Shown here in pieces: positions 382-33,580 of a DNA stretch of 64,000 bases. Source of the stretch: Thermomicrobiales bacterium (GTDB lineage Bacteria > Chloroflexota > Chloroflexia > Thermomicrobiales > UBA6265); NCBI GenBank assembly GCA_045804965.1, contig JBJMMD010000016.1, positions 293,642-357,641 on the forward strand, written 5' to 3'. Numbering within the stretch: the first letter of the stretch is position 1; each line of letters begins with the position of its first letter. Both the position numbers and the translations under genes were made by a program. The notes beneath the pieces are model-generated. The model made no database searches. It was not told the origin of the DNA and saw only the letters and a list, made by a program, of their open reading frames with translations.

Positions 382-1581
382 CTACCTACTTGATCGGTCC
401 TCGCTAAGCGCGACCGCCAGAGCTGAAATTAATTCGTCAACTTGTTCTTCTTGCCAAACCAGCGGCGGGAGCAAGCGGAGAGCCAGGTTCCCCGCCGGCA
501 ATGCGAGGACGCCGTTTTCTTGCAGGCCCCGCAGTGTTGGCGTCACGCGCTCTTTGAGCTCAATCCCGATCATCAAGCCCCGGCCGCGAACTTGACGGAC
601 CTTTTGGCTGTTGAGGGTTTCAATCCGGCCGATGATCTGGGCCCCGAGTACCTCTGATCGCGTGCAAAGATTGCGCTCTCGGAGCGCGGTCAGCGTTGTT
701 ACAGCCGCCCGGCAGGCGAGCGGATTGCCGCCGAAGGTCGTGCCGTGCGCGCCGCTCGGCATGGCACTGCTGACGGCGTCTGTGACGAGGGTGAGACCGA
801 TGGGGAATCCGTTCGCCAGCGCCTTGGCTGTGGCCAGGATATCGGGCGTGACGCCGGAGCGGGAGATCGCGAATGGGACGCCGGTCCTGAATGCCGTTTG
901 AACTTCGTCGGCAATCAAGAGCGCGCCGTGGCGCGTTGTCAGATCGCGGGCGGCCTGAAGGTAGGCGTCGTCGGCCGGATAGATGCCCGCTTCGCCCTGG
1001 ATCGGCTCGATGATGACGGCGGCGGTTTCGCCGTCGACCGCCGCTTCGAGCGCCGCGACATCGTTGAAGGCAACATGCGTGGCCGGCAATGGCAGAGGCT
1101 CGAACGGCGTCCGGTATTTCGGGTCGGCGGTCGCGGAGAGTGCGCCGAGGGTTCGGCCGTGGTAGGCGCGGCGGGCGGCGACAATGTTGGGCCGACCGGT
1201 AGCCGCGCGGGCGAACTTGAGCGCGGCTTCGATCGCTTCCGCGCCCGAGTTGCTCAGGAACGCGCGCGGCAATCCAGCGGGCGCGATCTTGGCGATTTCG
1301 GCCAGCAGCTCGGCCCGCACGTCGCTGTAGAAGCTCTGGTGGCAGGTTGATAGCGTCGCGAGCTGTTCGGCGAGGGCAGCAGTAAACTCTGGGTCGGCAT
1401 GACCGAGAACCGCAACCCCGTAATTGCTCATCGCGTCGAGGTAGCGGCGGCCCTCGCTGTCAAACAGGTAGGGACCTTCGCCGCGGAGCAGGGCGATTTC
1501 CCGCTTGGCGTAGAGCGGGAGTTGATGATCGTGCTCGATCCGCTGAATCTCGTCGAGCGCCATCGTGGCGGTCGTGGTCAT
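382..1581 (-). CDS. lysJ: class-III PLP aminotransferase, [LysW]-aminoadipate semialdehyde / acetylornithine aminotransferase type
   Basis: 399-aa ORF with SNSGAEAIEAALKFAR, LLIADEVQTAF and TTFGGNPLA motifs. It is the last gene of the LysW operon. Its ATG overlaps the stop of the upstream gene (ATGA at 1578-1581). Confidence 0.85.
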   Translation of the reverse strand: MTTTATMALDEIQRIEHDHQLPLYAKREIALLRGEGPYLFDSEGRRYLDAMSNYGVAVLGHADPEFTAALAEQLATLSTCHQSFYSDVRAELLAEIAKIAPAGLPRAFLSNSGAEAIEAALKFARAATGRPNIVAARRAYHGRTLGALSATADPKYRTPFEPLPLPATHVAFNDVAALEAAVDGETAAVIIEPIQGEAGIYPADDAYLQAARDLTTRHGALLIADEVQTAFRTGVPFAISRSGVTPDILATAKALANGFPIGLTLVTDAVSSAMPSGAHGTTFGGNPLACRAAVTTLTALRERNLCTRSEVLGAQIIGRIETLNSQKVRQVRGRGLMIGIELKERVTPTLRGLQENGVLALPAGNLALRLLPPLVWQEEQVDELISALAVALSEDRSSR

Positions 1582-2108
1582 ATGGACTCCTTGGTCATGA
1601 GCGGTCGGATAATCTGTTCAATCCAATCTTGGATCGGCTCACCCGAGTGATATATCACTTCACCTTCATCGGCTGACGGAGGTTGCATCTCGCCAGAAAC
1701 CAGGGCGAAATCCTCGTCTCGCACGTGCGGCCGCGCGTTCGTCGTTCGGTTTTCGTCGCGCCGTTGCTTGGCCTCTGCCTCCGAGACGTCGACATAGACG
1801 ATCGTCGCCGGCACGCCCTGTCGGGCCGCGATCCGCGTCAAGCGCTGGCGGTGAATCTTCCGATAGCTCGTCGCGTCGAACACGGCTGAGTTTCCCGCCG
1901 CCAACACCTCGTCCAGTTTCTGAAATGACGCGCGATACGCCTCGATCCAGTCTTCGCGAGTGGGTGCCTCTGCATTCAAATCCAATCCGCGCTCGCCATG
2001 GACCGAATCGAGCTCAACATGCGCGAGATCAAGCTGTTCCGCCATCGCCTTCGCCAGCGTCGATTTACCGGAGAACGGCAGACCGCAAAGGATGAAGAGC
2101 CGTTGCAC
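1578..2108 (-). CDS. P-loop ATPase/kinase-like protein (AAA_33-like)
   Basis: Walker A motif GLPFSGKST. I chose GTG at 2108 because the ORF-track N-terminus (to 2213) runs into the palindromic repeat at 2148-2277. It is translationally coupled to lysJ. Confidence 0.65.
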   Translation of the reverse strand: MQRLFILCGLPFSGKSTLAKAMAEQLDLAHVELDSVHGERGLDLNAEAPTREDWIEAYRASFQKLDEVLAAGNSAVFDATSYRKIHRQRLTRIAARQGVPATIVYVDVSEAEAKQRRDENRTTNARPHVRDEDFALVSGEMQPPSADEGEVIYHSGEPIQDWIEQIIRPLMTKESI

Positions 2109-2147
2109 GCAATGAAATTCCTGTCCATATTCGCCCGGGGCTGAAAT

Positions 2148-2277
2148 CACCCAGAGGGTACCCGGGGCTACAAATGACGAAGCCCTTCCAGGGCTGAACA
2201 CGACGCTTTCCACACGGGCCGTCGTCAGCCGGTCTTGAGCCGGCTTCGTAGGTTGAGCCCCGGGTACCCTTCGGGTG
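2148..2277. repeat. 130-bp palindromic MITE/REP-like element (family C)
   Basis: The 21-bp terminal arms cacccagagggtacccggggc (2148-2168) and gccccgggtacccttcgggtg (2257-2277) are inverted repeats with 2 mismatches. Internal segments also pair (acgaagcc/ggcttcgt, ggctga..cgacg/cgtcgtcagcc). Confidence 0.75.
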
Positions 2278-2329
2278 CTTGAGGCCCGCGCACGCGGCCC
2301 AGGCGCTCAGGCTCTATGCGTTTCCGCGT

Positions 2330-3157
2330 CTACTCTCTTTGGGCCACTACTGCCCGCCGCACGACTGTCCCCTCGCCCGCCAGCGCTCTTTGCACCGGAT
2401 GTTCAACCCGCGCGTCCGCAAATTGGACGCGCTCGACACCGCGCTCGACCGCGCCGACCGCGGCTTCGACTTTGACTTTCATGCGGCCGGCCGCGGCTGC
2501 GAGCGCCGTATGCGGCGAAGCGGCATCGATTTCGTGAATCAGCGTCGATTCATCCACTTTGTCGGCGAGGAGACCTGGCGTGTCGGAGAAGAAGATGAGC
2601 GTCTCGGCCCCGAGCGCGATTGCCAATTCGAGCGCCAATTTGTCGCCGTCGACGTTGATGGGAATCCCGCCCTCACTCAGTGCCGGAGGGGTCAATACCG
2701 GCAGGTAGCCGCCGTCGAGCACGAGCCGAACCAGGCGGGTATCGATCGCTTCCAAGGTACCGGCGTGATCGTCGCGGAGCACTTTCGGTTTGCCGTCTTC
2801 CGCGCCACGAATGACGGCCTTGCGGCGGCCGAAGGCAATGCGACCGTCGAGACCGGCCAGGCCGACGGCATTGACACCGGCCGCTTGCAGCTTGCCGACG
2901 AAGGTCTTGTTGACCTTGCCGCAGTAAGCCATCAACATAGCATCCATCGTTTCGCGATCGGTGTAGCGGGTGACGCGCCCCTTGTCATTCGTGATCATCC
3001 GCGGCGGCATCCCGAGCGCGGCGCTGAGGCGACTGAACTCAGTGTTGCCGCCGTGGACGAGCACGATCGGTTCGCTGATGGCCGCCAGGTCGGCCGCGAA
3101 CCGTTCATAGACGGTCTCATCGATTGCGGCTCCGCCGCCGATCTTGAGCACGAGCAT
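2330..3157 (-). CDS. lysZ: amino-acid kinase family: [LysW]-aminoadipate kinase / acetylglutamate kinase
   Basis: MLVLKIGGG.., VLVHGGN and INVDGDKLA motifs. ATG at 3157 is preceded by GGAGAAGGAAA. The ORF-track extension to 3292 covers an inverted repeat. Confidence 0.85.
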   Translation of the reverse strand: MLVLKIGGGAAIDETVYERFAADLAAISEPIVLVHGGNTEFSRLSAALGMPPRMITNDKGRVTRYTDRETMDAMLMAYCGKVNKTFVGKLQAAGVNAVGLAGLDGRIAFGRRKAVIRGAEDGKPKVLRDDHAGTLEAIDTRLVRLVLDGGYLPVLTPPALSEGGIPINVDGDKLALELAIALGAETLIFFSDTPGLLADKVDESTLIHEIDAASPHTALAAAAGRMKVKVEAAVGAVERGVERVQFADARVEHPVQRALAGEGTVVRRAVVAQRE

Positions 3158-3247
3158 CGAGTAAGTTTCCTTCTCCTTGTCATTCCGAAGGTCTTCCACC
3201 GTCGTCCTGAGCGCAGATCCCCCATCAATCCGTGCGTATACCCCCTC

Positions 3248-3330
3248 GTCATGCCGAGCGAAGTCGAGGAATCTAGTCGTTTTTAAGGCCAAAGAAGAAC
3301 ACTAGATGCCTCGACATCGCTCGGCATGAC
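3248..3330. repeat. inverted-repeat element, family A (30-bp arms, 23-nt spacer)
   Basis: gtcatgccgagcgaagtcgaggaatctagt (3248-3277) versus the reverse complement of actagatgcctcgacatcgctcggcatgac (3301-3330): 28 of 30 positions match. It lies between lysY and lysZ. Confidence 0.8.
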
Positions 3331-3354
3331 GAAGACGGTCAAAGTCGAACCTGA

Positions 3355-4401
3355 TCAAATAGGATGCAATCCCGCGAAATCGATACCGCACGTTTCTTCG
3401 TAGCCGCAGCGGATGTTGAACGCCTGCACCGCTTGACCCGCCGCGCCTTTCATCAGGTTGTCGAGAGCCGCGATCACGACGACGCGATGGGAATGCGGAT
3501 CGCGCTCGAAGCCGACATCGCAATAATTGCTGCCCGAGAGGATCTTTGGTTCCGGATAGCGATGAATTCCCGACGACTCCTTGACGATCCGCATGAACGG
3601 CTCGTCCTTGTACGCCGCGCGGTAGATCAGCCAGAGGTCTTTCTCGGTCAGCGGCTCGCTCAGGAAGACGTGCGATGTGGCGACGATCCCTCGCACCGCT
3701 TCGATCGATGTCGCCGTAAACGCGATTTCCGGCTTGACGCCGTTGAAGGTCAACTCCTGGATGATCTCGGCGCTGTGCCGGTGGCCGGTCGGCTTAAACG
3801 AGCGAATCACGCCGCTGCGCTCAGGGTGATGGGAAGCCAAGCCCGGTCCGCCGCCTGAACCGGACGACCCCGTCTTCGCCTCGATCGTCGTTGGAATCCG
3901 GCGATCGACCACGCCCGCCCGGTAGAGCGGATAGAGCCCGAGGATCGATGTCGTGGCCATGCAACCGGCGCTCGAGATCAGGTCGGCGGAGCGGATCTCT
4001 TCCCGGTGCAGCTCCGGAATGCCGTAGACGAAGTTGCGGAGTTCACCAGCGAGCGTGTGTTCGTGGCCGTACCATGTCGGATAGGCGTCCGGGTTGTTGA
4101 GGCGGAAGTCGGCGCTGAGGTCGATGATGATTCTCGCCTTTTCCCGGAGCTCGGTCATTTTGTTCATCGACACCCCATGCGGGAGGGCGATGAAGAGGAC
4201 ATCGACCGGCGCCAGCGTTTCGACGCTCGTAAACTTCAGGTCGGTGCGCTTGCGCAGATTTGGGTGGATCGAGCGGACAAATTTACCGGCGCTTCGCTCC
4301 GACGTGACTTGGGTGAGACTCGCGCCAGGATGGTCGAGCAGGAGCCGCACCAACTCCCCTCCCGCGTACCCCGACCCCCCAACGACGGCGACATTGAACA
4401 T
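3355..4401 (-). CDS. lysY: [LysW]-aminoadipyl-phosphate / N-acetyl-gamma-glutamyl-phosphate reductase
   Basis: MFNVAVVGGSGYAGGEL Rossmann N-terminus, SSAGCMATT Cys motif, 348 aa. AAGGAG lies 10 nt upstream of the ATG. Confidence 0.85.
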   Translation of the reverse strand: MFNVAVVGGSGYAGGELVRLLLDHPGASLTQVTSERSAGKFVRSIHPNLRKRTDLKFTSVETLAPVDVLFIALPHGVSMNKMTELREKARIIIDLSADFRLNNPDAYPTWYGHEHTLAGELRNFVYGIPELHREEIRSADLISSAGCMATTSILGLYPLYRAGVVDRRIPTTIEAKTGSSGSGGGPGLASHHPERSGVIRSFKPTGHRHSAEIIQELTFNGVKPEIAFTATSIEAVRGIVATSHVFLSEPLTEKDLWLIYRAAYKDEPFMRIVKESSGIHRYPEPKILSGSNYCDVGFERDPHSHRVVVIAALDNLMKGAAGQAVQAFNIRCGYEETCGIDFAGLHPI

Positions 4402-4610: not shown

Positions 4611-5507
4611 CTAATCCGCAGCCGCCGCGGCCCCAACCTCGACCCGCCTCTCCCGACCCGCGCGGCCGACTTCGAGCACATAGTCGATGATGCGCGCGGG
4701 AATGTTGACACCGGTCGTGTCGATGCTATTGCGGAACTCCATCGTGTAATTCACTTCGTTGACGAGCAAGCCCCGATCGCTTTCGAGGAGGTCGACCGCG
4801 ACGACTCCGCCCCCAACCGCGCAGGCGGCTGCTCGCGACAACTGGTCGAGTTCGGGCGTGACCGGGCAATTACTGGCCAGTCCACCACGTGCGGTGTTCG
4901 TGATCCAGTGCGGTGAGTCGCGGTAGATCGCGCAGATCGTCTCGTCGCCGACGACGAATGAGCGGATGTCGCGACCTGGCTTGTGGACGTACTCCTGGAT
5001 GTAGAACGCGCCATGGTGGAACGAGCCGAGCGTCACTTTGTGTTCCAAAATCGCCTCCGCGGCGTCCCGGTCATTGACCCGTGAGAGCAGCCGGCCCCAG
5101 GAACCGATGGCTGGCTTCAAGACGACCGGATAACCAATCTCCTCGATTGCCTCCAACGCCGCTTCCGGCGTGAAAGCGATGATCGTGCGCGGGCTAGGCA
5201 CACCGCCGCGGACAAGCGCGGTTGTCGTCAGCAGCTTGTCGCCGCAGGTGTTGGCGACGTCGTAGGTGTTGACCGTCGGCACACCCCAGTCGTTCAACAC
5301 TTTCAGTGAATAGAGCGCGCGCAAATGGTTGATGCAACGTTCGATCACGACGTCGCAGGCGATCGATGGCCGGAGCAGATCGAGCTTCAATGCACGGTCG
5401 TCGAAGCGGACGACGTGCACACCCCTGCGCTCGAACTCGGTCAGGAGCAGCTTTTCTTCGACCCGGACCCGCGAGAGCAGGATGCCGACAGTTACCTGAT
5501 CGTCCAC
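4611..5507 (-). CDS. lysX: RimK/LysX-family ATP-grasp ligase (alpha-aminoadipate--LysW ligase type), paralog 1
   Basis: [25 protein letters not shown] and [15 protein letters not shown] motifs. GTG at 5507 has GGAGG 5 nt upstream. The ORF-track extension to 5657 covers the T-box leader. Confidence 0.8.
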
Positions 5508-5846
5508 GGATGCCTCCACGTTGCGCCGAGTGGCTGGTGAGCCTGATTCGTCTGTTCGACGCGCTTGCAACAATGCACAAAGCCCCCGTCCAAAGGACGG
5601 AGGGCTTCGCTCCGTGGTACCACCTTTGTTCGCCGGCCCTCGCGGGAACGGCCTCACCGGGCGCCAACACGCCCTGGCTCGGTAACGGGAGCACCCGGCC
5701 GGTTCTAATCCGGTGAGCTACTAGCTCATCGTTTCTTCCGGCGGCTCGGGGGTCTTCTTCAGAATCGGATCTCTCCGCGGACCTTGCACCAATCGTCCGC
5801 TCGCTGGGGCGCTTCCCCGTTCCTAGTCTGTCCCCGTCATTGCCTC
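5508..5846 (-). promoter_or_regulatory. T-box riboswitch leader (candidate Lys specifier AAG at 5754-5756)
   Basis: Read on the minus strand. K-turn GGC-AAU-GA-C-GGGG pairs with CCCC-C-GA-GCC. AG bulge AGCGA is followed by stem GCGGAC/GUCCGC with distal loop GAUUGGUGCAAG. T-box core AAAGGUGGUACCACGG lies at 5612-5627. The antiterminator is CAAAGG[UGGUACC]ACGGAG..CUCCGUCCUUUG. Confidence 0.85.
5568..5604 (-). terminator. intrinsic terminator of the T-box leader
   Basis: CCCUCCGUCC-UUU-GGACGGGGG stem followed by CUUUGUGCAUUGUUG. It competes with the antiterminator because both use the CUCCGUCC segment. Confidence 0.7.
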
Positions 5847-5855
5847 GTTGGTTCG

Positions 5856-5884
5856 ATTATCGCTACCGAGCCGCTCAGACGCAA
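5856..5884 (-). promoter_or_regulatory. candidate sigma70-type promoter for the T-box/lysX unit
   Basis: Minus strand reads TTGCGT (5879-5884), 17 nt, GATAAT (5856-5861). The predicted start falls a few nt before Stem I (about 5844). The -35 overlaps the stop codon of the upstream gene. Confidence 0.4.
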
Positions 5885-6792
5885 GGTGCGGCTGGTTGCA
5901 GATGGTTCACTTCCGCGATGTGCAGTGCCTCGCTCACGATCTCCGCAGCGATATCGATCTCAGTCGTCGACATCAGTCCTTTGAACTCGCCGCCCGTGTT
6001 GACTTCGACGATTTCCAGTCCTTCCTGTGTTTCGACGATGTCGACTCCGGCCAATCGAGCGCCGACCGCGGCGCACGCCCTGAGCGCGATCTCTTCGATC
6101 TCAGGCGTGATTTCGCAGGCGACCGAGATCGCCCCGCGGGCGGCGTTGGTGATCCAATGCTCGGAGGTTCGGTACGACGCCGCGAGCACGCGATCGCCGA
6201 CGACATAGGCGCGGATGTCGCGATCCGGTTTCTGGATGAACTCTTGAACGTAATAGATATGGTGATGAAACGAACCGAGCTCCGCCTTTTGGTCGAGAAT
6301 CGCTTTGGCCTGCTCGGGCCCGTTCGCCTTTGCCAGCAACCTGCCCCAGGACCCAGTCACCGGCTTGAGCACGACTGGATATCCGAGTTGCCCACACGCC
6401 TTCATCGCCGATTCGACCGAGAACGCAAGCAAAGTGCGCGGCGTGGCGATGCCGGCGGCTTCGAGGGCGAGCGAGCAGGCCGCCTTGTCGTCGCACGTCG
6501 TGGTCGCGGCCGAGTGATTGAGCGTGGGCACGCCCCAGCGCTCGATCGTGCGCAAGGTGTACTCCGCGCGGCTGTGGACGACACAGCGGTCGAGGACGAC
6601 GTCGACGCCCAGCCCAGCGGAATCGGCGGACCGAGCCGAGAGATCGAGCACGAGCTCGCGGTCGAAGAGCGGCTTCACTTCGATGCCGCGGTGGCGCGCC
6701 GCGTTCAAAATCAGTTTTTCTTCGTCCCGCAAATGGGAGACAAGAACCCCGAGGCGGACACTTGCCCGGCCGTTGGAGGCGTGGGTGCTCAT
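5875..6792 (-). CDS. RimK/LysX/ArgX-family ATP-grasp ligase, paralog 2
   Basis: [24 protein letters not shown] and GVDIVET..EIVEVN motifs. ATG at 6792 overlaps the lysK stop (ATGA). Whether the substrate is Glu or aminoadipate cannot be told from sequence. Confidence 0.8.
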
Positions 6793-9152: not shown

Positions 9153-10196
9153 TCAGCACAACGTATGCAGCAGCAACGCTTTATGGACATGTAGGCGGTT
9201 TTCCGCCTGGTCGAAAATGATCGACTGCGGGCCGTCTGCGACCTCGGCCTCGACTTCTTCTCCCCGTCGCATCGGCAGACAGTGCATGAAGACCGCGGTC
9301 GGTTTCGCCATTGCCATCACGCCGGTCGTCACCCGGTAGGCTGCCAGCCTGGTCGCCTTCTGCGTGCTCTCGTTCTGGCCCATGCTCTGGTGGACATCGG
9401 TGTAGACGGCGTCGGCTCCGGTCACGGCCTCCTCGAGGCGCTCAGTGACGGTAATCTTCGCCCCGCTCGTCGCGGCCAGTCCCTGAGCGATGCGGACAAT
9501 TTCTTCCACGGGATGGTAGTCAGCGGGGGCGGCCACGTTGACGTTCACGCCCATCGCCGAGCAGGCGAGGAGCAACGAGTTGCACATGTTGTTGCCATCG
9601 CCGAGGTAGGCAAAGGTCTGGCCCTTGAGATCGCCGAACCGTTCTTGGAGCGTAAACAGATCGCCCAGCGCTTCGATCGGGTGAGACTTCTCGGTCAGAC
9701 CGTTGAACACGGGCACCGATGCGCCCGCCGCAAAATCGAGCAGGTCCTGGTGCCTCGCGATGCGGCAGGCAACGGCATCGAGATACAAGCTCATGATCTC
9801 GGCGGTATCCTCGATCGTCTCGCCCCGGCGCAGTTGCAAATCGTCGGTACCGAGGAAGATCGTGTGCCCGCCGAGTTGCTCCATTCCGACCTGGAACGCC
9901 GTCCGGGTGCGCGTGCTCGGGTGCTGGAAAACGAGGCCGAGCGTCTTGCCGGTCAGAAAAGTGTGCGGCAGACCACTCCGCCGCATCCCTTTCAGCCGAG
10001 CCGCGGTGCCGAGCAGCTCGTCGATCTCGTCCGGCGCCAGGTCGGTGTCGAAGAGGACGCTGCGGCCGCGCAGACGCAGGCTGATCCCCGTCGGACCGTA
10101 CTCGCCCCGCGTGAAGCGATCGTCCGGCAATGCCTCGCCATCCCACCCTTGACTATCGTGTTGTGTCGTCGCGTCTACCACATCGGTCCCTAACAC
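9153..10196 (-). CDS. ornithine carbamoyltransferase-family protein, paralog 1
   Basis: FQHPSTRTR, DVHQSMG, HCLPMRRGEEV and FDQAENRLH motifs. It has HPIE where the family has HPxQ. The start (GTG at 10196) is uncertain. There is a roughly 40-aa N-terminal extension before LRGRSVLFDTDL. Confidence 0.75.
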   Translation of the reverse strand: MLGTDVVDATTQHDSQGWDGEALPDDRFTRGEYGPTGISLRLRGRSVLFDTDLAPDEIDELLGTAARLKGMRRSGLPHTFLTGKTLGLVFQHPSTRTRTAFQVGMEQLGGHTIFLGTDDLQLRRGETIEDTAEIMSLYLDAVACRIARHQDLLDFAAGASVPVFNGLTEKSHPIEALGDLFTLQERFGDLKGQTFAYLGDGNNMCNSLLLACSAMGVNVNVAAPADYHPVEEIVRIAQGLAATSGAKITVTERLEEAVTGADAVYTDVHQSMGQNESTQKATRLAAYRVTTGVMAMAKPTAVFMHCLPMRRGEEVEAEVADGPQSIIFDQAENRLHVHKALLLHTLC

Positions 10197-11278
10197 ATCG
10201 TGTGGAGCAGGAGCGCCTTCGACAGATGCAGCCGGTTTTCAGCTTGCTCCCAAATGATCGATTGCGAGCCGTCGGCAACCTCCGCCGTGACTTCTTCTTC
10301 CCGGTGCATCGGCAGGCAGTGCATGAAGATCGCACTTGGCTGCGCCGTCGCCATGATCTCTTGGGTCACTTTGTACGGAGCGAGCGCGACCGCGCGGGCT
10401 GCGCCATCGGTTTGGCCCATGCTGACGTGAACGTCGGTATAGACTGCGTCCGCATCCTTCGCCGCGACGTAGGGATCGTCAGAAACGGCGATCTTCGCGC
10501 CCGAGGCGCTGCCGAGCCACGTCGCGTGCTTCACCACGTCCGGAGCGGGCTGGAATTTCTCAGGCGCCGCCACCGAGACGCTGATCCCCATCGCCGCACA
10601 CGACAGCAGCAACGAACACACGACGTTGTTGCCGTCGCCGAGATAGGCGAGCTTCAGCCCTGCCAGCGTGCCGAACTGCTCTTGCAGGGTCAGCAGATCG
10701 GCCAGCGCCTGCAACGGGTGGCTCGTGTCGGAGAGCCCGTTCAGCACTGGAATCGAGGCCGATGCATGCAACGTCTTCAGATCGTTGTGGTCGGCTACGC
10801 GGGCGACAATCGCATCAACGTACCGGCTCAAGATCTGCGCCGTGTCGCCAATCGTTTCGCCCCGCTTCATTTGCAGGTCGTTGACGCCGAGAAAGATCGC
10901 CTGACCGCCAAGCTGGGCCATGCCGGCTTCCAAGGCAACCCGCGTTCGCGTGCTGGGATGTTGGAAGAGCATGCCGAGCGTTTTACCCGGCAAGTACGGG
11001 TGCGGCTCGCTCTTTTTGTGCAATCGCTTCAGCCGGGCCGCGGTTTCCAGCAGCTCGTGAATCTCGTCGGGCGTCAGATCGGTGTCGACCAGCACACTTC
11101 GCCCGCGGAGGCGGGTCGAGAGACTAAACGTCGCGATCTTGGACGTGGTCTGACCGCCGAGGGACACGGTGCGCGCGGCCGCCGGCATATCCGGCGTGAC
11201 CACCGGCGCGGTCGGCATCGTATGCAGGGCAGGACTATCAACAATAGGGGGCTGTTTGGCAGTCGAGAAGTCTTCCAT
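10190..11278 (-). CDS. ornithine carbamoyltransferase-family protein, paralog 2
   Basis: FQHPSTRTR, HPLQALADL, DVHVSMG and HCLPMHREEEV motifs. ATG at 11278 has GGAGGG 8 nt upstream. The ORF-track extension to 11641 is the T-box leader. Confidence 0.8.
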   Translation of the reverse strand: MEDFSTAKQPPIVDSPALHTMPTAPVVTPDMPAAARTVSLGGQTTSKIATFSLSTRLRGRSVLVDTDLTPDEIHELLETAARLKRLHKKSEPHPYLPGKTLGMLFQHPSTRTRVALEAGMAQLGGQAIFLGVNDLQMKRGETIGDTAQILSRYVDAIVARVADHNDLKTLHASASIPVLNGLSDTSHPLQALADLLTLQEQFGTLAGLKLAYLGDGNNVVCSLLLSCAAMGISVSVAAPEKFQPAPDVVKHATWLGSASGAKIAVSDDPYVAAKDADAVYTDVHVSMGQTDGAARAVALAPYKVTQEIMATAQPSAIFMHCLPMHREEEVTAEVADGSQSIIWEQAENRLHLSKALLLHTMC

Positions 11279-11625
11279 GGTGGTTTCCCTCCGGCTCTCG
11301 TCCGAGACGAGACGCTTCGCGCCTGCAACGTCCATTCGTCGCGGGCCGAAGGGGCGAGAGGCGTCAACTCCCGCGGTACCACCCTTCTTGCGCTGGGTTG
11401 ACCGAAGATCGGTCTGAGCGGCAAAACCCTGCGCATCTCTCGGTTGTTGCTCGCTTGGGAACCACCCAACCGGACCTACTTGCCATCCATCACCGACGTG
11501 CAGGACGCTTTCTTCGGCCGGCCGCTCAGGGGCGCGTTCCGGGTTCGGGCGCAGTTCCTGGACTTCCACCGTCTCCAGGTCGCTTCGGCGCGCGAGCCCC
11601 GTACTCCTCCCCGTCAATGCGGGCT
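11279..11625 (-). promoter_or_regulatory. T-box riboswitch leader (candidate Arg specifier CGC at 11534-11536)
   Basis: Read on the minus strand. K-turn CCGC-AUU-GA-C-GGGG pairs with CCCC-U-GA-GCGG. The 5-prime specifier-loop strand is AGGAGUA. AG bulge AGCGA is followed by stem CCUGGA/UCCAGG with distal loop GACGGUGGAAG. T-box core GGGUGGUACCGCG lies at 11372-11384. The antiterminator is GAAGGG[UGGUACC]GCGGGAG..CUCUCGCCCCUUC. Confidence 0.85.
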
Positions 11626-11785
11626 GGATGAGCGACAACACTGCCGCCCGTCCGTGAATACCTAAAAATTCAACTGTCAGGCTGTGGGTGAGCGCTGGCG
11701 GGCGACCGTCAGCGCGCGGTACGGAACCGTCGCGTCGGTCGCCCGAGCGGAGAGCGGGAGAGGCTCTCCGGGTGTGTTGTCAGCC

Positions 11786-30559: not shown

Positions 30560-30682
30560 CGTCTCCCTTCAGAAGTGCGAGCAGCGGTCGAGTTAAATGC
30601 CGTAATGATGCGTCGCTTTCCAGGTTCTTGACATCCTAGCCACGTGTTCTGTAGATTCTTGGTCAACAACTGAAATGAACTG

Positions 30683-30782
30683 CCTTATCACGAGAGGTGG
30701 AGGGAAACGGCCCTGTGAAGCCCGGCAGCCTGCGCGACGAGCGCAAGGTGCCAATTCCGGCAGAGTGATCTGCGAGATAAGG
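30683..30782 (+). promoter_or_regulatory. SAM-I (S-box) riboswitch
   Basis: CCUUAUCACGAGAGGUGGAGGGAAACGGCCCUGUGAAGCCCGGCAGCC...AAGGUGCCAAUUCCGGCAG...GCGAGAUAAGG matches the S-box consensus blocks. It lies upstream of metX and metY. Confidence 0.9.
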
Positions 30783-30804
30783 GTTAGGCGTTGCTACCCC
30801 GGCG

Positions 30805-30830: not shown

Positions 30831-30899
30831 ATTGAGTTCTTGTGCCACGGTTCGCCGTAACTCACAGTGCTCGTCCTCCACGTCACCATCCTAGCTGCA

Positions 30900-32123
30900 A
30901 TGCCCGAGTCGAGGATAGAACGAGTGAAAAAGCACACCGCGCGCCAGATGGAACATTTCGTTCCTTCCCCCGCTGAACAGGAGGGAAAAGGAAAACGCCT
31001 CCGTGTGGTCCCGTCCGCGGACGAGATCGAGGACGGCGCTCTGCGCTCGTTCGCCATCGGAGGTCTCGATCTCGAGCTCGGCGGCCGGCTCGAGACCGTG
31101 ACCGTGGCCTTCCGCACCTGGGGCAAGCTCAACGAAGCCGGTGACAACGCCGTGCTCGTCGTCCACGCCTTGACCGGCGATTCGCTAGCCGGTGGTCCCG
31201 ATGGCTGGTGGGAGCCACTGATCGGTTCTGGCCGCGCGCTCAATAGCGATACCCAGTTCATCATTTGCTCGAATATTGTCGGCGGCTGCCAAGGAACGAC
31301 AGGGCCGTCCTCAATTGATCCGCTTACCGGTCGGTCCTATGCGATGCGCTTCCCGCTCATCACCATTGGCGATATGGTCGCCGCCCAACGCCGAGTGGTC
31401 GAGCGCCTCGGCGTCACAAAGACCGTCGTCATCGGCGGTTCGATCGGCGGCTTCCAAGCGCTCGATTGGGCAACGCGCCACCCTGATCTCGTGTCGGCTG
31501 CCGTGCCGATCGCGGCGACGGGCGCGCTCGGTGCTCAAGGCATCGCGATTCATAGCGAGCTCGGGCGGCGCGCGATCATGGCCGATCCCGAATGGCGCGG
31601 CGGCGAATATGCGAGCGAGGGCGTTTTTCCCGCCAACGGGCTCTCGATCGCGCGGATGGCGGCGATGACCGCGTACCAGAGCCGGGAGAGCATGGCGATG
31701 CGATTTGGGCGCAATCCCGCGACCCGTCCCGGTCTCTTCCCAAGCTTCGGCGGCACGTTCGATATCGAGGGCTATCTTCATTACCAGGGCGCCAAGCTCG
31801 TGCGCCGCTTCGACGCCAACTCCTACCTCTATTTGACGCGGGCAATGGACCTCTACGATGTCGGTCGCGACGGCGGCGAGGATTACTGGCTGGATAACAT
31901 CTCTTCCCCGCTGCTCTTCATCGGGATTCGCAGTGACTGGCTCTTTCCACCGAACGAGGTTCGTGACCTTGCCAAGCGTTTGACAACCATGGGCAAGGAT
32001 GCAAGCTACGCCGAACTCGACTCTCCGCACGGACACGACGCGTTCCTCAAAGAATGGGATCAACTCGAGGCCATTATCGGACCGTTCCTCGCACGGGCGA
32101 CTGCCGGGCAGCGCGGGTGGTGA
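30900..32123 (+). CDS. metX: homoserine O-acetyltransferase
   Basis: AVLVVHALTGDS and GGSIGGFQALDW (nucleophile elbow) motifs in an alpha/beta hydrolase. The start is uncertain (30867 GTG, 30900 or 30948 ATG). Confidence 0.8.
   Translation: MPESRIERVKKHTARQMEHFVPSPAEQEGKGKRLRVVPSADEIEDGALRSFAIGGLDLELGGRLETVTVAFRTWGKLNEAGDNAVLVVHALTGDSLAGGPDGWWEPLIGSGRALNSDTQFIICSNIVGGCQGTTGPSSIDPLTGRSYAMRFPLITIGDMVAAQRRVVERLGVTKTVVIGGSIGGFQALDWATRHPDLVSAAVPIAATGALGAQGIAIHSELGRRAIMADPEWRGGEYASEGVFPANGLSIARMAAMTAYQSRESMAMRFGRNPATRPGLFPSFGGTFDIEGYLHYQGAKLVRRFDANSYLYLTRAMDLYDVGRDGGEDYWLDNISSPLLFIGIRSDWLFPPNEVRDLAKRLTTMGKDASYAELDSPHGHDAFLKEWDQLEAIIGPFLARATAGQRGW

Positions 32124-32269: not shown

Positions 32270-33580
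<1,311 letters not shown>

Follow-up and report, generated by a model that had tools for sequence, protein, structure and literature searches.

The window analysed here, a stretch of 64 000 nucleotides (nt) from a Thermomicrobiales genome (GenBank assembly GCA_045804965.1, contig JBJMMD010000016.1), carries on its minus strand a cluster of LysW carrier-protein genes in which lysX, coding for the α-aminoadipate–LysW ligase, is preceded by a long RNA leader. The sequence makes it very probable that this leader is a class-I transcriptional T-box for tRNA-Lys that controls lysX, lysY, lysZ, a kinase-like open reading frame (ORF) and lysJ. The genes placed under it form the LysW-carrier branch that leads from α-aminoadipate to lysine in Thermomicrobiales (Chloroflexota). 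The four genes that follow lysX (positions 382 to 4401) presumably lie in one transcription unit with it, and the order lysX-lysY-lysZ-lysJ is kept in Thermomicrobiales loci. The positions of all features are collected in Table 1.

Family match, fold and covariation of the lysX leader

A search of a 16-kb segment with the Rfam models, run in E-value mode, matched the T-box family RF00230 at positions 5849 to 5590 of the minus strand (75.2 bits, E = 4.5e-15). The alignment was full length, covering model positions 1-219. The closest relatives of the LysX protein were found in Thermomicrobiales, Chloroflexota (best protein identity 84%), and 13 orthologous leaders from Thermomicrobiales genomes were aligned (alignment A1, about 310 columns). 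RNAalifold recovered Stem I, Stem II, Stem IIA/B, Stem III and the antiterminator from this alignment. Base pairs were counted on a lightly corrected version of the RNAalifold structure, with 500 shuffled alignments and slid pairing partners as controls. Standard pairs occupied 90.5% of the cells, as compared with 74.0% in the shuffles and 35–47% with slid partners, while compensatory changes were present at 41 of the 64 pairs (24.6 expected); none of the 500 shuffles reached the observed values of pairing and compensation. By this measure the leader structure is under selection. Given the E-value and the covariation among the 13 orthologs, the Rfam match goes beyond chance.

The individual elements were also conserved in A1. 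In the kink-turn (K-turn) at the base of Stem I, the basal pairs 24-127 and 25-126 formed in 13/13 and 12/13 sequences, respectively, and helix 2 was 94% paired. The AG bulge/distal loop motif, CAGCGAGCG...UGGUG.AAG, was nearly invariant, and the distal helix of Stem I was 98.7% paired, with compensatory changes at all six of its pairs. Compensatory changes affected 8 of the 12 pairs of Stem II (helices 7-8) and 14 of the 16 pairs of Stem III (helices 10-11), amounting to 24 of 32 for helices 7-11 together (Stem II, IIA/B and III). Stem IIA/B, assigned from the Rfam alignment and helix 9, contains an invariant CCGTTA. The sequence GGTGG.ACCACGG was invariant as well, and the antiterminator helices 12-13 were 91–98% paired. 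The antiterminator pairs AAGG (5626-5623) with CCUU (5596-5593) and ACGGAG (5615-5610) with CUCCGU (5602-5597), leaving a bulge of 7 nt, UGGUACC (5622-5616), whose UGGU is the predicted partner of the 3′ ACCA of the tRNA.

A preliminary description of this DNA, made from its letters alone, had proposed a T-box leader at 5508-5846, a range that matches the leader exactly, from its Stem I down to the last base ahead of the GTG start of lysX. The Rfam match, the RNAalifold fold and the covariation bear this out, and each of the elements quoted was found on the minus strand in its expected place. A small correction concerns the 5′ S-turn motif, which reads ACUA in the window and not AGUA.

Table 1. 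Genes of the cluster and elements of the lysX leader, in the direction of transcription (positions in the window)
Feature	Position	Strand	Details
argG	13045-11786	−	
First T-box leader	11626-11347	−	
Ornithine carbamoyltransferase, first	to 10190	−	ATG about 11277
Ornithine carbamoyltransferase, second	10196-9153	−	
lysW	9112-8951	−	
Divergent ATP-grasp	8793-7849	−	
lysK	8000-6789	−	
LysX paralog, putative glutamate–LysW ligase	about 6762-5875	−	start approximate; last gene of the upstream half
Predicted promoter	5884-5856	−	σ70-like; −35 TTGCGT 5884-5879, 17-nt spacer, −10 GATAAT 5861-5856
lysX leader	5849-5569	−	
Stem I	5844-5743	−	Rfam alignment; covariation helices 1-6
K-turn	GGC 5844-5842, AAUGA 5841-5837, CGGGG 5836-5832 / CCCC 5752-5749, C-GA 5748-5746, GCC 5745-5743	−	
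AG bulge	5805-5801	−	AGCGA
Distal hairpin of Stem I	5800-5777	−	loop GAUUGGUGCAAG
Specifier loop, 3′ strand	5760-5753	−	GAAGAAGA; GAA S-turn 5760-5758, G 5757, AAG 5756-5754, purine A 5753
Stem II	5743-5696	−	GAAGAA / AGUAGAA-type internal loop; RNAalifold, helices 7-8
Stem IIA/B region	5697-5677	−	includes conserved CCCGUUA; Rfam alignment, helix 9
Stem III region, two hairpins	5674-5659, 5652-5632	−	helices 10-11
T-box core	5627-5612	−	AAAGGUGGUACCACGG
T-box sequence and antiterminator	5627-5593	−	Rfam alignment; helices 12-13
Predicted intrinsic terminator	5610-5569	−	hairpin GCGAAGCCCUCCGUCC-UUU-GGACGGGGGCUUUGU 5610-5577, overlapping U-rich tail UUUGUGCAUUGUU 5581-5569
lysX, α-aminoadipate–LysW ligase	5507-4611	−	Shine-Dalgarno GGAGG 5517-5513, start GTG 5507-5505
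lysY/argC-type reductase	4401-3355	−	NCBIfam
lysZ kinase	3292-2330	−	NCBIfam
Kinase-like ORF	2213-1578	−	
lysJ aminotransferase	1581-382	−	NCBIfam

The specifier codon

The structural alignment with RF00230 reads the 3′ strand of the specifier loop as GAA, G, AAG, A, CCCC, i.e. as AAG with the usual purine after the codon. The same codon in the same register was present in 18 of 18 leaders, namely the 13 of A1 and five further ones from a Thermomicrobiales genome (L020), a Chloroflexia genome (L023), a Chloroflexi bacterium metagenome-assembled genome (MAG; L055, leader 5′-truncated), a Chloroflexota MAG (L022) and the megaplasmid of Thermomicrobium roseum DSM 5159 (L081, NC_011961.1). The specifier is AAG (Lys) on this comparison. 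The preliminary description had preferred AAG over AGA and GAA, and had named structural alignment and comparison of orthologs among the means of deciding; both returned AAG, which is kept throughout while the flanking bases vary (see below).

AAG is also the major lysine codon in the genes of the window (253 AAG versus 125 AAA). According to TBDB, lysine specifiers are among the rarest T-box specificities, and two-codon families favour the codon ending in A, which accounts for more than 85% of entries (PMC7778990). Since the 3′-A codon is usually preferred in such families, AAG is therefore a minority form of the specifier, as expected with a G+C-rich genome.

Predicted promoter and terminator

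The −10 hexamer of the predicted promoter ends 11 nt before Stem I, and the TGA stop codon of the upstream LysX paralog (5877-5875) falls inside the promoter, between the two hexamers. The hexamers match the consensus at 8 of 12 positions, and a consensus scan of the minus strand between 5300 and 6100 did not call the promoter. In seven orthologs (L001, L002, L003, L005, L009, L011 and L012), a perfect TTGACA was found at the same position, followed after 17–18 nt by TAATCT, TACCTT or TAAGCT (TAnnnT) ending 8–11 nt before Stem I. Because this TTGACA-17/18-TAnnnT arrangement sits in the same place in the orthologs, a dedicated promoter for the lysX leader appears likely. The preliminary description had given the leader a promoter of its own; the −35 region is poor in the window, but the seven orthologs speak for it. 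It had also suggested that transcripts arriving from the upstream half of the cluster would meet the same terminator. This fits the sequence: the 30 nt that separate Stem I from the stop codon of the preceding gene contain no hairpin with a U tract.

The predicted terminator takes its 5′ arm from the 3′ half of the antiterminator, with CUCCGUCC common to both helices. The 61-nt segment holding the terminator hairpin had a folding energy of −30.3 kcal/mol (z = −3.5). The hairpin ends 60 nt before the Shine-Dalgarno sequence (SD) of lysX, which lies outside the helix; this argues for attenuation of transcription, not for sequestration of the SD. The ortholog hairpins had energies of −25 to −39 kcal/mol and better tails (e.g. 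UUUUUG, UUUUUU, UUUUUUGUGUUUUU), and the terminator of T. roseum reads CCGCUCGCCC...GGGCGAGCGG-UUUUCGUUUG. The outer arm AAGCCC/GGGCUU is replaced by GGAGUC/GACUCC in L013, L017, L019 and L020, with compensatory changes at five of the six pairs. The arm shared with the antiterminator, the distance to the SD, and the compensation and better U tracts of the orthologs agree with the transcriptional attenuator proposed in the preliminary description.

Points against the assignment and alternative readings

Several observations weigh against a tRNA-Lys-responsive transcriptional T-box. The score of the leader, 75.2 bits, lies below the curated gathering score of RF00230 (93), which is why the default Rfam scan at the gathering threshold reported no T-box in the window and called only an S-adenosylmethionine (SAM) riboswitch. 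The Chloroflexota origin, the 65% G+C content and the long insertions account for a score below the cut-off, and the relatives of the lysX leader reached 38–66 bits. The −35 hexamer of the window, TTGCGT, matches the consensus at three of six positions. The U tract is interrupted (UUUGUGCAUUGUU), and a consensus terminator scan (minus strand, 5300-6100) made no call for the hairpin, since only four of the first eight tail bases are U. The base N of the UGGN sequence, a U in most leaders, is a C in L002, L003 and L020, where AAG is unchanged, a variation at odds with a single A73 discriminator base. A tRNA-Lys with G73 would, judging from the pairing rules, suit both U and C. An ARAGORN search of the window and of 27 related loci found no tRNA genes, which would have given the anticodon (presumably CUU) and the discriminator base. 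Finally, in about a third of the Thermomicrobiales loci (L006, L010, L015, L016 and L018) the two ligase genes are adjacent with no leader between them, so the leader is dispensable in some lineages.

Among all Chloroflexota T-boxes examined (window 5849-5590 and 11626-11347; L001, L020, L023, L055 and L081), scores ranged from 38 to 75 bits, below 93 in every case.

These points, and others, could be read in three other ways. The strand GAAGAAGA contains GAA and AGA in addition to AAG, and the cluster, with argG, two ornithine carbamoyltransferase genes and an arginine T-box, also makes arginine, so that a T-box read in another register might respond to tRNA-Glu or tRNA-Arg. Neither triplet is conserved among the orthologs: GAA is excluded by the base 5′ of AAG, which can be G, A or C, and AGA by the base 3′ of it, which is variable too (in A1 the 3′ base is A in 11 leaders, C in L001 and G in L021; with the G of T. 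roseum, a purine is present in 17 of the 18 leaders and a C in one). AGA is, moreover, the rarest arginine codon in the genes of the window (21 occurrences), and the specifier of the arginine leader in this cluster is CGC or CGG. A shifted register is thus extremely improbable.

A translational T-box, in which an alternative helix would hide the ribosome-binding site as in the actinobacterial ileS leaders, would explain the imperfect U tract; the first leader of the cluster apparently acts by SD sequestration, and only about 10–20 nt lie between the end of the hairpin and the SD in L009 and L011. The 60 nt between hairpin and SD in the window (5577 versus 5517-5513) and the clean U runs that follow the hairpin in orthologs and in T. 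roseum (UUUUUG, UUUUUU, UUUUCGUUUG) make this unlikely. The leader might also be a decaying relic with no regulatory role, lysX being expressed by readthrough from the upstream operon as in its leaderless relatives. The absence of the leader from five loci, the weak −35 region and the sub-threshold Rfam score would be in keeping with this. Yet every functional motif is intact, AAG and UGGNACC are invariant in A1, and compensatory changes are found in every helix, those of the terminator and antiterminator included. As compensated pairing requires ongoing selection, there is very little probability that the leader is a relic.

Proposed mechanism

The steps of tRNA binding, antitermination and termination proposed here are taken from established T-box biology. 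RNA polymerase would start at the promoter of the leader or arrive from the argF...lysW...lysK...argX-like genes, there being no terminator before Stem I. The folded Stem I, whose motifs and covariation were observed, would offer AAG to the anticodon of tRNA-Lys, presumably CUU, while the AG bulge and the distal loop would dock the tRNA elbow. With uncharged tRNA, pairing of the 3′ NCCA end with UGGU (5622-5619) would stabilise the antiterminator (5626-5593) and allow readthrough into lysX. With charged tRNA, the more stable of the two mutually exclusive helices, the terminator with its U-rich tail, would form, and the transcript would end around 5580-5569, about 60–70 nt before the lysX start codon. 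Readthrough transcripts from upstream would meet the same terminator, which may therefore also act as a lysine-dependent boundary between the arginine-controlled and lysine-controlled halves of the cluster.

Distribution of the leader in related genomes

When a nucleotide profile built from A1 was run with nhmmer, 14 Thermomicrobiales loci proved to contain the leader, in each case in the interval separating the ligase genes. The profile also picked up related leaders in front of lysW-lysX in L022 and L023, and the 5′-truncated one of L055. In the five loci without a leader between the ligase genes, the whole cluster follows the arginine leader only. In four loci with no Lys leader (L004, L006, L010 and L018), the gap between lysX and lysY was about 800 nt, as compared with 50–300 nt in most leader-bearing loci; this suggests the presence of an extra gene in the gap.

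On the T. roseum DSM 5159 megaplasmid, a Lys T-box (AAG followed by G) lies at positions 9394-9648 of L081 (153424-153678 of NC_011961.1). It has a textbook terminator with the UUUUCGUUUG tail and is followed by a short ORF for a hypothetical protein and by an isolated lysX.

The first leader of the cluster

The first T-box leader of the cluster, in front of the first ornithine carbamoyltransferase gene, matched RF00230 with 52.2 bits (E = 3.9e-9). Its specifier reads CGC followed by G; nine of ten orthologs have CGC and the tenth the synonymous CGG. As both are arginine codons, this leader is arginine-specific. No hairpin with a U tract was found 3′ of this T-box (11268-11626, minus strand). 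The minimum free energy fold places CCGGAGGG, the SD of the gene for the first ornithine carbamoyltransferase, in a helix with CCCUUCGG, which supplies the 3′ strand at the base of the antiterminator; the modelled fold thus looks like that of a translational, SD-sequestering T-box. The A1 profile recovers Lys leaders and not Arg leaders, from which it follows that neither leader of the cluster is a recent duplicate of the other.

Next to the arginine leader come two ornithine carbamoyltransferase paralogs in tandem (9153-11278, minus strand), while some related loci have a single copy. If the ATG at 11277 is used, the first would carry an N-terminal extension of about 60 amino acids.

The two ligases and the other genes of the window

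The product of lysX scored 342.3 bits with TIGR02144 (cut-off 275.6) and 315 bits with PDB entry 3vpd. A five-residue motif separates the ligases of this pathway: F-I-T-NS in LysX, I-Y-V-GF in ArgX and Y-I-T-NA in bifunctional enzymes (PMC12998189). The gene 3′ of the leader has F, I, T and NS at the positions equivalent to 182, 192, 203 and 258-259 of Thermus thermophilus LysX, i.e. the LysX type. Because the downstream gene carries this aminoadipate-type motif, the specifier and the regulated pathway agree.

The paralog upstream of the leader scored 304 bits with TIGR02144, but none of the five residues of its motif, Y-S-A-GL, is that of the LysX type. It resembles ArgX only at 258/259 (G plus a hydrophobic residue, cf. 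GF), while its Y182 is that of bifunctional enzymes; it scored 122 bits with archaeal ArgX (3vpb) as against 225 bits with Thermus LysX. Its context (arginine T-box, ornithine carbamoyltransferase, argG) suggests a role in arginine synthesis, and its sequence is possibly that of a bacterial ArgX-like glutamate–LysW ligase. With glutamate specificity probable on these grounds, the lysX leader would stand exactly between the glutamate ligase and aminoadipate ligase genes.

The upstream paralog and the divergent ATP-grasp gene, the two ATP-grasp paralogs beside lysX, keep their positions across Thermomicrobiales loci. The divergent one, between lysW and lysK, had 5i47 as its best PDB match and scored 72 bits with the LysX hidden Markov model. 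The kinase-like ORF between lysZ and lysJ (211 amino acids) matched L-seryl-tRNA(Sec) kinase weakly (E = 2e-7), and most orthologous clusters lack it. Within the 64-kb window, no further argB, argC or argJ was found. At 30682-30783 of the plus strand, a SAM-I riboswitch (77.1 bits, above its gathering score) is followed by genes for an α/β-hydrolase (metX-like; 30867-32123) and a Cys/Met pyridoxal phosphate enzyme (32276-33580), which is an ordinary methionine-biosynthesis layout.

Comparison with known systems

The mechanism itself is that of a standard class-I T-box and is not new. With the transcriptional T-boxes of Bacillota (e.g. Bacillus subtilis tyrS; RF00230), the lysX leader shares the K-turn, the specifier loop with its codon and 3′ purine, the AG bulge and distal loop, Stems II, IIA/B and III, the UGGN bulge and the mutually exclusive antiterminator and terminator. 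It differs from them in its Chloroflexota origin, its G+C content and long insertions, and in its 5′ S-turn ACUA. Further, it controls a LysW-carrier lysine operon, not an aminoacyl-tRNA synthetase, and lies inside a gene cluster, directly 3′ of another gene.

Other cis-acting RNA attenuators also shut down lysine genes when lysine is plentiful. The L-box (RF00168) binds free lysine, while the aminoadipate cluster of T. thermophilus has a leader peptide whose attenuation depends on ribosomes stalling at lysine codons. The lysX leader, unlike these, would sense the charging of tRNA-Lys directly. Rfam scans, in default as in E-value mode, gave no L-box for the window.

Lysine-specific T-boxes are known from the class I LysRS leader of Bacillus cereus lysK (PMC2916919) and from lysine permease leaders of Bacillales (PMC2494555; PMC3766115, supplement). 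The lysX leader would belong to the same tRNA-Lys-responsive class; in contrast to these leaders of synthetase and transporter genes in Bacillota, it controls biosynthesis. Its AAG departs from the 3′-A codon preferred in TBDB. No lysine or arginine T-box was reported for the five Chloroflexi genomes surveyed in PMC3766115 (supplement). We found no paper that ties a T-box to the LysW/aminoadipate pathway and none on such a T-box in this bacterial group, in a search that did not extend to the main survey of 2008 (Vitreschak et al.) or to any lysine T-box it may give for Chloroflexi.

The cluster resembles the LysW pathway of the Sulfolobus type (PMC12998189) in having one LysW, two paralogous ligases and arginine genes in the cluster, with kinase, reductase, aminotransferase and hydrolase each present once. 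It differs in that it is bacterial, its upstream paralog lacks an orthologous relationship to archaeal ArgX and has a new motif (Y-S-A-GL), and each of the two branches is marked by a T-box (CGC for Arg, AAG for Lys), an arrangement for which no report was found.

Implications

The lysX leader might form one half of a circuit in which two tRNAs control a shared carrier-protein pathway; we put this reading forward tentatively and hold it to be rather less probable than its opposite. In such a circuit, the translational Arg (CGC) T-box would head argF, argF′, lysW, the divergent ATP-grasp gene, lysK and the ArgX-like ligase gene, while the Lys (AAG) T-box, transcriptional and served by a promoter of its own, would gate lysX-lysY-lysZ-lysJ from its place exactly between the ArgX-like and LysX ligase genes. 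If LysY, LysZ and LysJ also make arginine, the lysine-gated genes would be needed for arginine synthesis, and LysW and LysK, behind the arginine leader, for lysine synthesis. With all five proteins serving both branches, as in Sulfolobus, each synthesis would depend on the tRNA of the other amino acid. In that case, the operon would have a conditional boundary at the Lys terminator, where arginine and lysine signals would be integrated, and the presence or absence of the leader among Thermomicrobiales would record recent rewiring.

As leaders of this kind score below the gathering threshold, standard annotation may miss them. T. roseum is cultured and fully sequenced, and would be convenient for experiments. 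The sequences point to the use of tRNA-Lys sensing by Chloroflexota to control the LysW lysine pathway. In one cluster, arginine and lysine T-boxes mark both branches of what appears to be a bacterial shared Arg/Lys carrier-protein pathway, providing a compact natural system for the study of shared enzymes under two amino acid signals, and the leaders give independent regulatory evidence on the substrate specificity of both LysX paralogs.

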